Shown: piece after piece, positions 659-6,681 of the stretch | Position numbering within the stretch: position 1 is the stretch's first letter | Layout of the letters: every line of letters starts with the position of its first letter | IMG/VR virus record: IMGVR_UViG_3300010338_000575 | Source of the DNA: a virus | Taxonomy: Duplodnaviria > Caudoviricetes | DNA: 64,000 nucleotides | Strand: one strand, 5' to 3' | Position numbers and translations under genes: made by a program | The notes under the pieces: generated by a model | The model's input: only the letters and a program-made list of their open reading frames with translations | Database searches by the model: none | What the model was told of the DNA's origin: nothing

Positions 659-1732
659 TTATAAATCATCACGAAAAAGTTTACTGTTTTGTGGTTTAAT
701 CATTTTCCATATAATATCATCATATGGTCGTTTATCATATAATTTAAAAAGAATTGAAGGGTATTTTGTTTTTATCGCTTCGTTAGCAAAATCTTTTCGT
801 TCTTTAATATCATTAATATGATAAATTCTAATAAATTCTTTTAACGATTTTCTTTCAATTTCATTATAATCATTAATTAAATTATTTTTTGTCTTTTTTA
901 ACCATTTATAATATTCATCGGGTACAATATTAAATAAAGCATTAAAATCATAATTGTTTTTTAAAAATTCCCATATAGTTAATGTGCTAACATTAGTTAA
1001 TATTCCGTGTAATTGAATGTATTCATTAAATTTAATTTTTACACGAAAACCATCCGAAAATTTAACAACAAAACCTTCTTTATTATTTTCTTCAAGTTTT
1101 TTTAAATCATATAAATTATTAATATCTTTAATATTTAATCTTTTAACAATTTTAAAATTGTTTGAATATTTATTAACCATTTCATCGTATTCAAATTCAA
1201 TACCAGTTCTTGTATGAATTACTGATAATAATATCAATTCTCTTGTATCACCATAATCAACAACAATACGATTTTCAGGATAAATAATTTCAAAAAGATA
1301 TGTGCAATTTTTATTCAATAAATTATAAACAGAAGCATTTAACATTTTTTTTGCTTCTATTGATTGTTTTGAAATAAAAGACCCTCTTGTTGTAACAATC
1401 CATTCCATACGTGGTTCATAATAAAAAAGTATTATTAACGAACCATCCATCTTCTCAAAAATTTCATATTTTTTTGACATGTCAATTTCTGAAGGATCAT
1501 GTTCCTCAATATTTTTAAATTTTTGAAACGGACGTGCAATAATATTACCATCTTCATCAATAACTAATCCTCTACACGATTTGGTGTAGATATCCCAAAA
1601 TTTTTTAAATTGTGCTTTGGGTGAATAATTTAATATCCACAAATTATATTCGGGATGTTTATTAATTGTAATTAAATCATTACTAATGTAATCATTTAAT
1701 ACATTCCAATCTATTTTTTCTAATATTTCCAT
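659..1732 (-). CDS. T4 Rnl1-like RNA ligase
   Basis: CRGLV, RPFQKFKN, motif I EKMDGSL, TRGSF, FEIIYPENRIVV, EGFVV, KIK. Confidence 0.9.
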   Translation of the reverse strand: MEILEKIDWNVLNDYISNDLITINKHPEYNLWILNYSPKAQFKKFWDIYTKSCRGLVIDEDGNIIARPFQKFKNIEEHDPSEIDMSKKYEIFEKMDGSLIILFYYEPRMEWIVTTRGSFISKQSIEAKKMLNASVYNLLNKNCTYLFEIIYPENRIVVDYGDTRELILLSVIHTRTGIEFEYDEMVNKYSNNFKIVKRLNIKDINNLYDLKKLEENNKEGFVVKFSDGFRVKIKFNEYIQLHGILTNVSTLTIWEFLKNNYDFNALFNIVPDEYYKWLKKTKNNLINDYNEIERKSLKEFIRIYHINDIKERKDFANEAIKTKYPSILFKLYDKRPYDDIIWKMIKPQNSKLFRDDL

Positions 1733-5890: not shown

Positions 5891-5963
5891 TGGAGTTGAC
5901 GGGATTCGAACCCGTATCAACCTGCTTGCAAAGCAGGTGCAATACCAATTATGCTACAACCCC
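5891..5963 (-). tRNA. tRNA-Ala(TGC)
   Basis: GGGGTTG acceptor with G3:U70; CCTGC-TTTGCAA-GCAGG. Confidence 0.95.
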
Positions 5964-5983
5964 ATTTTTCACAATTTATAATG

Positions 5984-6056
5984 TGTGAGTGGTGGGAATC
6001 GAACCCACAAATTTCTGCTTTTAAGGCAGTTGCCTCTTCCATTCGGCTACACTCAC
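5984..6056 (-). tRNA. tRNA-Leu(TAA), short variable loop
   Basis: GTGAGTG/CACTCAC acceptor, CTGC-CTTAAAA-GCAG, GGTTCGATTCC. Confidence 0.85.
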
Positions 6057-6115
6057 TAATATTATAGGTATTAAATACGATATTTATAAAATATAGTTGA
6101 TTTAACTAATATTAG

Positions 6116-6190
6116 TACCCATTGAGAGATTCGAACTCCCGACTTTCTGTATGTAAAACAGACACTCTAACCAATCTGAGTTAAATGGGT
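6116..6190 (-). tRNA. tRNA-Val(TAC)
   Basis: ACCCATT/AATGGGT acceptor, TCTGT-TTTACAT-ACAGA. Confidence 0.93.
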
Positions 6191-6203
6191 ATTTTATATA
6201 TTT

Positions 6204-6279
6204 TGGTAATGCGTATGGGATTCGAACCCATGTTATAAGATTGAAGGTCTTATGGCTTAACCAACTTGCCCAACGCATT
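6204..6279 (-). tRNA. tRNA-Glu(TTC), C33 variant, encoded CCA
   Basis: AATGCGT/ACGCATT acceptor, TAAGA-CCTTCAA-TCTTA, TAAC variable loop. Confidence 0.8.
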
Positions 6280-6298
6280 ATATAAACGATAAAAATTG

Positions 6299-6372
6299 CG
6301 GTACGTATGGGATTCGAACCCATGAACTCCACCGTGACAGGGTGGCATGATAACCATCTTCACCAACGTACC
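6299..6372 (-). tRNA. tRNA-Asp(GTC)
   Basis: GGTACGT/ACGTACC acceptor, CCACC-CTGTCAC-GGTGG. Confidence 0.95.
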
Positions 6373-6389
6373 ATATTATTATATACAAA

Positions 6390-6402
6390 ATTTCAAAGAA
6401 CA
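6390..6402 (-). promoter_or_regulatory. boxA-like antitermination element
   Basis: TGTTCTTTGAAAT between the terminator and the first tRNA. Confidence 0.5.
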
Positions 6403-6412
6403 TTATAATAAC

Positions 6413-6439
6413 AAAAAAACCCGACTTTATTGTCGGGTT
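6413..6439 (-). terminator. Attenuator terminator of the Asp/Glu/Val/Leu/Ala tRNA cluster
   Basis: AACCCGAC-AATAAA-GTCGGGTT followed by a T run. Confidence 0.9.
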
Positions 6440-6463
6440 ATATTTATGAAAATATATAACATA

Positions 6464-6553
6464 TCACCCGACGAAACATAAATATGCATCATCGACTAAT
6501 AATGACCACTCCAATTTATTAAACATATGTCGAAAATTTAACATAATCATCAT
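6464..6553 (-). CDS. Putative leader peptide MMIMLNFRHMFNKLEWSLLVDDAYLCFVG
   Basis: 29-codon ORF between promoter motifs and terminator; its 3' end GTCGGGTGATAT complements the terminator 5' arm. Confidence 0.75.
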   Translation of the reverse strand: MMIMLNFRHMFNKLEWSLLVDDAYLCFVG

Positions 6554-6681
6554 TTTTGTAATAAATACGTTACAAATATAAATAATGTTACAAAATTTTG
6601 CAAATTTTTTTATAAAAAATTGAAAAATTTTTTCTTTATATCAGATAAAAAAATGATATTCAATAACTTATTAGTTTTTAT

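Follow-up and report, generated by a model that had tools for sequence, protein, structure and literature searches.

Organization of the leader B locus

We analyzed a 64,000-nucleotide (nt) stretch (hereafter, the window) of the IMG/VR record IMGVR_UViG_3300010338_000575 (Duplodnaviria; Caudoviricetes), focusing on leader B, a short region that precedes a block of transfer RNA (tRNA) genes and is a strong candidate for a ribosome-mediated transcription attenuator. The window has a G+C content of ~25% and contains T4-type capsid, portal, terminase, and sheath genes; the source is a T4-like giant phage, and the nearest relatives of its capsid proteins, at ~30% identity, are those of uncultured huge phages. 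Leader B lies on the minus strand, as does a second leader, leader A (Table 1). Its elements follow one another along that strand as a small open reading frame (ORF) with a 4-codon spacer, a segment (region 2) lying over the stop codon, a segment (region 3) shared with an intrinsic terminator, a U-tract, and then the tRNA genes, the first of which, tRNA-Asp, begins 41 nt beyond the terminator and U-tract.

The original prediction, made from the sequence of the window, was that this ORF contains ten codons for LEWSLLVDDA, nine of which, all but the Ser codon, specify amino acids of the tRNAs encoded behind it. Both statements are correct: the 29-codon ORF, which has three ATGs within its first four codons and ends in TGA, carries TTG GAG TGG TCA TTA TTA GTC GAT GAT GCA as codons 14 to 23, and nine of these ten encode Leu, Glu, Trp, Val, Asp, or Ala. 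The in-set core codons are all readable by tRNAs that are present; the Leu codons are UUR only, the only Leu tRNA being UAA. The last regulatory codon, GCA (6487-6485), starts 15 nt before region 2 (6472). Nine in-set codons out of ten are reached by 15 of 4872 background small ORFs from related loci. By itself, the signal in the window is moderately strong, and the decisive evidence is comparative.

The intrinsic terminator consists of AACCCGAC, a loop, and GTCGGGTT (6439-6418), with an 8-bp stem containing five G-C pairs and a seven-U tract (T-run to 6411). It had also been proposed that the end of the ORF pairs with the terminator arm so as to exclude the terminator, and the pairing is borne out: GUCGGGUGAUAU (6472-6461) can form 11 of 12 possible pairs with AUAUAACCCGAC (6443-6432), the exception being a G.A mismatch, and positions 6439-6432 are shared between this antiterminator and the 5′ arm of the terminator. 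The duplex has a predicted energy of -12.6 kcal/mol, compared with -6.5 +/- 1.6 kcal/mol in dinucleotide shuffles (z -3.8; 0/200), and the fold of the whole leader (-40.7 kcal/mol) is likewise unmatched among shuffles (z -4.0; 0/200). A further hairpin is predicted between 6500-6484 (region 1) and 6479-6463, and the alternative hairpins in the window are balanced, at about -16 kcal/mol for 1:2, -13.3 kcal/mol for 2:3, and -12.8 kcal/mol for 3:4 (ViennaRNA).

Table 1. Features of the leader A and leader B loci, with coordinates read 5′ to 3′ on the minus strand
Feature	Coordinates	Strand	Remarks
Leader A ORF with Q-P-Q-P-Q-H-H	7629-7570	-	
Leader A terminator	7544-7501	-	followed by tRNA-Pro/His/Gln
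tRNA-Pro/His/Gln	7454-7215	-	
SiaC-family gene (PF09345)	7074-6682	-	between the Pro/His/Gln and Asp/Glu/Val/Leu/Ala tRNA blocks
Leader B promoter region	6604-6562	-	from sequence; predicted start site
Leader B ORF	6553-6464	-	29 codons + TGA
Regulatory codon run L-E-W-S-L-L-V-D-D-A	6514-6485	-	codons 14-23
Region 1	6500-6484	-	codons TTA GTC GAT GAT GCA; ViennaRNA fold prediction
Region 2	6479-6461	-	last sense codons GTC GGG + TGA stop + 3 nt
Region 3	6443-6432	-	AUAU (6443-6440) + terminator 5′ arm (6439-6432)
Region 4	6425-6411	-	GTCGGGTT (6425-6418) + U-tract
Conserved motif GTTCTTTGAAAT	6401-6390	-	17 nt 5′ of tRNA-Asp
tRNA block Asp/Glu/Val/Leu/Ala	6372-5890	-	ARAGORN; Rfam 63-73 bits
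tRNA-Asp(gtc)	6372-6298	-	
tRNA-Glu(ttc)	6279-6204	-	
tRNA-Val(tac)	6190-6115	-	
tRNA-Leu(taa)	6056-5983	-	
tRNA-Ala(tgc)	5963-5890	-	
165-aa membrane ORF	5849-5352	-	
tRNA-Trp(cca)	5350-5267	-	

Orthologous leaders retain a set of codons rather than a peptide

With the protein of the membrane ORF as bait, we retrieved 34 IMG/VR loci on contigs of up to 340 kb, and a search with the leader peptide (a metagenome scan with five closer sequences) contributed further contigs, viral and metagenomic, that came from sludge, sediments, and lakes. Together these yielded 41 distinct orthologous leaders (that of the window and 40 others) on uncultured giant-phage contigs, each of which precedes Asp, Glu, Val, Leu, Ala, and (Trp) tRNAs as far as the contig reaches. 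Where the tRNAs are present, their order is Pro-His-Gln, Asp-Glu-Val-Leu-Ala, membrane ORF, and Trp. The region 5′ of tRNA-Asp is also kept in the relatives, with the promoter block, an ORF of ~29 codons ending in GTC-GGG-stop, CCCGAC, GTCGGG, and a T-run. A search of GenBank phage DNA matched the tRNA genes alone and returned no orthologous leader. No leader homolog was found in 185,579 bacterial and archaeal genomes, and prophages therefore give no clue to the host.

The leader consensus is M-K-N-L-L-D-I-L-M-V-x-L-x-A-V-L-L-W-A-A-D-E-D-K-L-x-x-V-G-stop. Across the orthologs, 441 of 449 core residues (98%) belong to the D/E/V/L/A/W set and, among the 111 core residues that differ from their column majority, 103 stay within it; the 4-codon spacer (12 nt) before GTC-GGG is only 33% in-set. 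The Trp codon is invariant, the Leu columns vary synonymously (TTA, TTG, and CTA), and a number of core columns have an unchanging G as first codon base and a free second base, such that Val, Ala, Asp, and Glu interchange. A fixed first base with a free second base indicates selection on set membership and not on the peptide. Judged from these sequence patterns, the leader ORF is translated and selected for its codon set rather than its peptide, and the reading frame, whose conservation the original prediction had named as a test, is held in the 41 orthologs, with variation that is synonymous or within D/E/V/L/A/W. The unconstrained 12-nt spacer matches the requirement of a ribosome footprint; a ribosome holding the last regulatory codon in its A site would leave region 2 only just exposed.

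Terminator and antiterminator pairings covary

Covariation was assessed on a 38-sequence alignment with 500 shuffles. For the 2:3 antiterminator, 91% of cells are paired, compared with 23-48% in slid controls, and five of the nine pairs change on both sides (24 cells; 0/500 shuffles), so the compensatory changes for which the prediction called are present. The 3:4 terminator behaves similarly, with 93% of cells paired and both sides changed in seven of 12 pairs (0/500 shuffles). GTCGGG is nearly invariant in the 38 sequences. One relative has a matched triple change, GTTGGG / CCCAAC / GTTGGG in regions 2, 3, and 4, and another has ATCGGG / CTCGAT in regions 2 and 3; in addition, the variable codon before GTC (the 5′ flank of region 2) shows covariation with the base that follows CCCGAC (the 3′ flank of region 3). 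The consensus structure predicted by RNAalifold is the terminator for the full leader, and the 2:3 helix for the part ending at region 3. In 32 of 37 folds of the relatives, CUCGAC at ORF nt 13-18 serves as region 1.

Leader B aligns over the full model length with the Rfam Trp_leader family (RF00513) at 25.6 bits (gathering cutoff, 41), and leader A scores 38.8 bits with Thr_leader (RF00506; gathering cutoff, 55). These Rfam matches of the leaders are all below threshold, and they are to models of leader-peptide attenuators, which favors the attenuator model; leader B would work like these families and is not a member of them. We found no T-box match at the gathering threshold or at E<=10. 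This bears on the idea that leader B is a translation-independent RNA switch that senses tRNA directly, as T-boxes do, or binds a protein, the ORF being incidental. RNA elements beyond the ORF are indeed conserved, and the CTCGACATA nucleotides are retained in the window even where the frame differs. Nonetheless, neither a T-box nor any other riboswitch was matched even at E<=10, the ATG, frame, and stop are all conserved, Leu codons alternate between the synonymous TTA and CTA, open frames of ~28 codons are rare in DNA of 25% G+C, and the 4-codon spacer fits a ribosome footprint. We regard an RNA switch of this kind as extremely unlikely.

Most leader B relatives (L023, L031, L054, L073, L081, L087, L091, and others) have an additional element, ACACUCCUUUCU, between regions 2 and 3. 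It resembles the 3′ tail of 16S rRNA and pairs, over as many as 12 bp and with covarying variants, with AGGAGUGU located just after the terminator T-run. The helix closes over the terminator; only transcripts that read past the terminator can form it, and it may be a processing stem.

Other tRNA blocks have leaders of their own

A scan for a hairpin and T-run within 200 nt upstream of tRNA genes identified nonhomologous leaders of further classes, giving 33 leaders in seven classes. Besides the Asp/Glu/Val/Leu/Ala/Trp class, ..QPQPQQHPQ.. leaders, including leader A of the window, precede Pro/His/Gln blocks, ..KYYFGKKSYKK.. leaders precede Lys/Tyr blocks, and ..HSIHISSISST.. leaders precede Thr/Ser/Ile/His blocks; three mixed classes precede Gly/Asp/Arg/Trp/Ala/Lys/Asn, Phe/Gly/Trp/Lys/Asp/Asn/Met/Val, and Asn/Tyr/Asp/Thr blocks. 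In a seven-by-seven matrix of leader class versus tRNA set, the matches fall on the diagonal, and none of the 5040 permutations does better than the true assignment. In 24 of the 33 leaders, the terminator 5′ arm forms a duplex with a segment located 9-15 nt beyond the matched codons (p<=0.05 versus shuffles; median z -3.1). For leader A, which has ..QPQPQQHPQ..EWG.. orthologs in six relatives, pairing of the terminator 5′ arm with the nucleotides immediately 3′ of the stop codon scores -13.3 kcal/mol (z -5.5). The initial interpretation of leader B as a multiplexed OR gate is thus supported, six other nonhomologous leader classes each matching their own tRNA block.

A model for attenuation of phage tRNA genes

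We consider it very likely that leader B controls a phage tRNA operon by ribosome-mediated (leader-peptide) transcription attenuation, and the phage probably makes the tRNAs of this block only when ribosomes read the leader codons slowly. This model rests directly on the anatomy of the locus, its conservation, the covariation, and the codon-set constraint; we infer the start site, the coupling of transcription and translation, stalling, and read-through. Transcription would start ~14 nt before the ORF. Were Leu, Glu, Trp, Val, Asp, or Ala codons decoded slowly, a ribosome would stall within the regulatory run, covering region 1 and freeing region 2. Region 2 (6472-6461) could then pair with region 3 and prevent the terminator from forming, allowing RNA polymerase to read into the Asp, Glu, Val, Leu, and Ala tRNA genes and probably through the membrane ORF to tRNA-Trp. 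With fast decoding, the ribosome would reach GTC-GGG-TGA and sit on region 2, the 3:4 terminator would form, and transcription would stop at the U-tract; without translation, 1:2 and 3:4 would both form and transcription would also stop. Stalling at just one of the six codon types would therefore be enough to open the circuit. Because the tRNAs under control are those that decode the test codons, the circuit would constitute a negative, self-limiting feedback on decoding capacity. The membrane ORF and tRNA-Trp are probably the distal part of the same, presumably cotranscribed, unit, because no terminator was detected between tRNA-Ala and tRNA-Trp, the Ala-ORF-Trp synteny is kept in relatives, and the Trp codon is invariant in the leaders.

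We also lean, with less confidence, toward a broader proposal, in which the tRNA genes of giant T4-like phages are arranged in blocks, each under its own codon-matched, multiplexed leader-peptide attenuator. These closed loops would form a bank of decoding-capacity sensors that switch on exactly the tRNA block made limiting by infection, whether through host codon-usage mismatch, host tRNA decay, or anticodon-nuclease cleavage.

Promoter signals and host

The promoter block of leader B comprises TTTG (6604-6601), 20 nt, and TATATTTG (6580-6573), followed by the conserved GTAACGTATTTA, and the same block (TGTAAC..TTTGCAACGTATTTA) is conserved 5′ of the orthologous leaders. As read from the sequence, transcription would start near 6567, giving a 5′ untranslated region of ~14 nt that is A/U-rich and lacks a Shine-Dalgarno sequence. 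The leader B promoter is the sole match near the locus to TTTG-N18-21-TAnnTTTG, a Bacteroidota pattern, and TGTAAC-N10-16-CGTATTT is not matched, the spacing at this site being 17. In the window, TTTGTAACAT is not enriched, and a sigma-70 promoter scan does not discriminate in such A+T-rich DNA (60 sites found versus 65 expected). A Bacteroidota-type promoter precedes several leaders, and the Atlas neighbors of the membrane ORF include Bacteroidota; neither of these is proof of a Bacteroidota host.

Observations against attenuation and alternative explanations

A number of observations weigh against the attenuator model, either in general or for the window copy. First, the TTTG-N18-21-TAnnTTTG pattern is not enriched in the window, with three matches (the leader B promoter among them) versus 5.5 expected. 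Second, the 1:2 pairing (CUCGAC:GUCGGG) has no covariation, its columns hardly varying. Third, leaders and tRNA content do not always agree, and the comparison with tRNA gain and loss that the original prediction had suggested gives a mixed result. L015, the closest relative, fits: it has neither a Glu nor an Ala tRNA, and in its leader Glu codons are absent and Ala is encoded once. L037, however, lacks tRNA-Ala yet has three Ala codons in its leader, and L031-L033 have only tRNA-Asp and tRNA-Trp behind leaders that still hold Val, Ala, Leu, and Glu codons. (The missing Glu, Val, and Ala tRNAs of L033 are not in its second tRNA array, which encodes Cys, Ile, Ser, Gly, Asn, Thr, and Arg tRNAs, but the contig is only ~23% complete.) Fourth, the start codon is ATG in 40 of the 41 leaders, and L015 has ATA. 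Fifth, the window copy is divergent, with indels of -2 nt and -1 nt that shift codons 7-13 out of the family frame, although the nucleotides TCGACATA are kept in the 38-sequence alignment, and with a Ser codon in its core. This Ser codon had raised the question of whether relatives encode a tRNA-Ser; it is peculiar to the window copy and is not a sign of a lost tRNA-Ser. Finally, a motif between the terminator and the tRNA genes could be a promoter that bypasses the attenuator (see below).

The divergence of the window copy raises the question as to whether the attenuator family is real and this copy is decaying, and either terminates constitutively or is leaky. The N-terminal third is out of frame relative to the family, the core is shorter and includes the Ser codon, the ACACUCCUUUCU/AGGAGUG helix of most relatives is absent, and L015, its nearest relative, has lost the ATG. 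Nonetheless, the ORF is open with its three ATGs, nine of the ten core codons fall within the set and can be read by tRNAs that the window encodes, and the predicted 1:2, 2:3, and 3:4 hairpins are intact with balanced energies; moreover, the two indels together restore the frame, which argues that selection keeps the ORF translated. We think it unlikely that the copy is decaying.

In the window and the L014-L092 set, the motif GTTCTTTGA(A/C)AT(G)TTGG is found 10-17 nt before the first tRNA, after 31 of the 35 orthologous terminators, and GTTCTTTGA(A/C)AT also occurs 2-3 nt before leaderless transfer-messenger RNA (tmRNA) genes and before some internal tRNAs. Were it a promoter, the small ORF and terminator could be an independent micro-gene for a functional hydrophobic/acidic peptide, with the terminator insulating tRNA genes that are transcribed separately; conservation of the peptide in 41 loci and the recurrence of the motif are in keeping with this. 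But substitutions in the leader follow set membership and not the identity or chemistry of the residue (Val, Ala, Asp, and Glu replace one another), seven unrelated leader classes mirror their own tRNA blocks, and a covarying antiterminator would be purposeless in a plain insulator. The motif itself lacks TA and a correctly spaced -33 element of a Bacteroidota promoter, and its window version, GTTCTTTGAAAT, is present in a single copy in the 64 kb. Because there is no proper Bacteroidota -33/-7 arrangement and only one copy in the window, a processing signal is the favored interpretation of the motif, a bypass promoter being the less likely one. The micro-gene explanation is in our view very unlikely.

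Relationship to known attenuators

Leader B, interpreted as an attenuator, resembles the Escherichia coli trpL, hisL, leuL, thrL, and pheL attenuators in having a promoter-proximal short ORF with a run of regulatory codons, mutually exclusive 1:2 (here a fold prediction), 2:3, and 3:4 structures with an intrinsic terminator, and a stop codon at region 2. Unlike these, it is phage-borne, targets tRNAs rather than biosynthetic enzymes, and would respond to six amino acids at once. The closest parallels in that last regard are the multivalent leaders, in which a stall at any of several amino acids leads to read-through: those of ilvGMEDA and ilvBN have Ile, Leu, and Val codons, and that of thr has Thr and Ile codons, such that two or three related amino acids of one pathway are involved. 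In leader B, there are six amino acids set by the tRNA content of the block, and its sister leaders have other sets. The pheST leader, pheM, is similarly a leader-peptide attenuator over a component of decoding, but is chromosomal and responds to a single amino acid. An attenuator-like leader with Phe codons reportedly precedes the E. coli tRNA-Phe genes pheU and pheV, likewise a chromosomal case with a single amino acid. T-boxes also sense tRNA status through a choice of terminator and antiterminator and control decoding-related genes, but they bind uncharged tRNA directly without translation, whereas leader B would sense it through a translated ORF.

Phage tRNAs are usually seen as constitutive cargo, either compensating for codon bias or replacing tRNAs cleaved by host defenses, and our full-text literature searches turned up no description of phage tRNA genes controlled by leader-peptide attenuation. 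If the model is correct, tRNA supply would be regulated on demand, block by block, by the ribosome. A textbook mechanism would then act on stable RNA genes, a target class new to it, and cover six amino acids together. Codon-matched attenuators would explain the conserved order and grouping of tRNA genes across very distant giant phages, and would represent compact, reusable natural sensors of decoding capacity for a given codon set. The model also gives a prediction for how these phages respond to tRNA-depleting defenses. We note that the window encodes a T4 Rnl1-like RNA ligase (PF09511, phrog_562; 659-1732, minus strand), adjoining a DNA methyltransferase gene; a tRNA-repair enzyme of this type in a phage that regulates its tRNA supply fits host-phage conflict over tRNAs.

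Neighboring genes and other tRNAs

No terminator was detected between the SiaC-family gene and the leader B promoter, and the SiaC-like protein, used as bait, returned no relatives from viral contigs; a 1454-aa ORF of the window likewise had no match. The membrane ORF encodes a multipass protein without a Pfam family, is located between tRNA-Ala and tRNA-Trp in all relatives, and has only a DUF998/DUF7103-like structural lead in the Atlas. A separate tRNA-Leu gene (3794-3708) has no leader and lies directly 3′ of a coding ORF.

The tRNA-Trp(cca) genes vary in length. They are 84 nt, with a long variable arm, in the window, L002 (3507-3590), and L004 (3485-3568), and 72-73 nt in the other relatives. 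In L035 (10829) and L043 (8328), tRNA-Trp is replaced just after the membrane ORF by a tRNA with a CUA (amber-reading) anticodon, a hint that part of this phage group may recode TAG. No tmRNA gene was found within the window; in L014, L017, L023, L033, and L038, tmRNA genes with tags ending in ..ELAFAA or ..ELAMAA are located a few kilobases downstream of tRNA-Trp.

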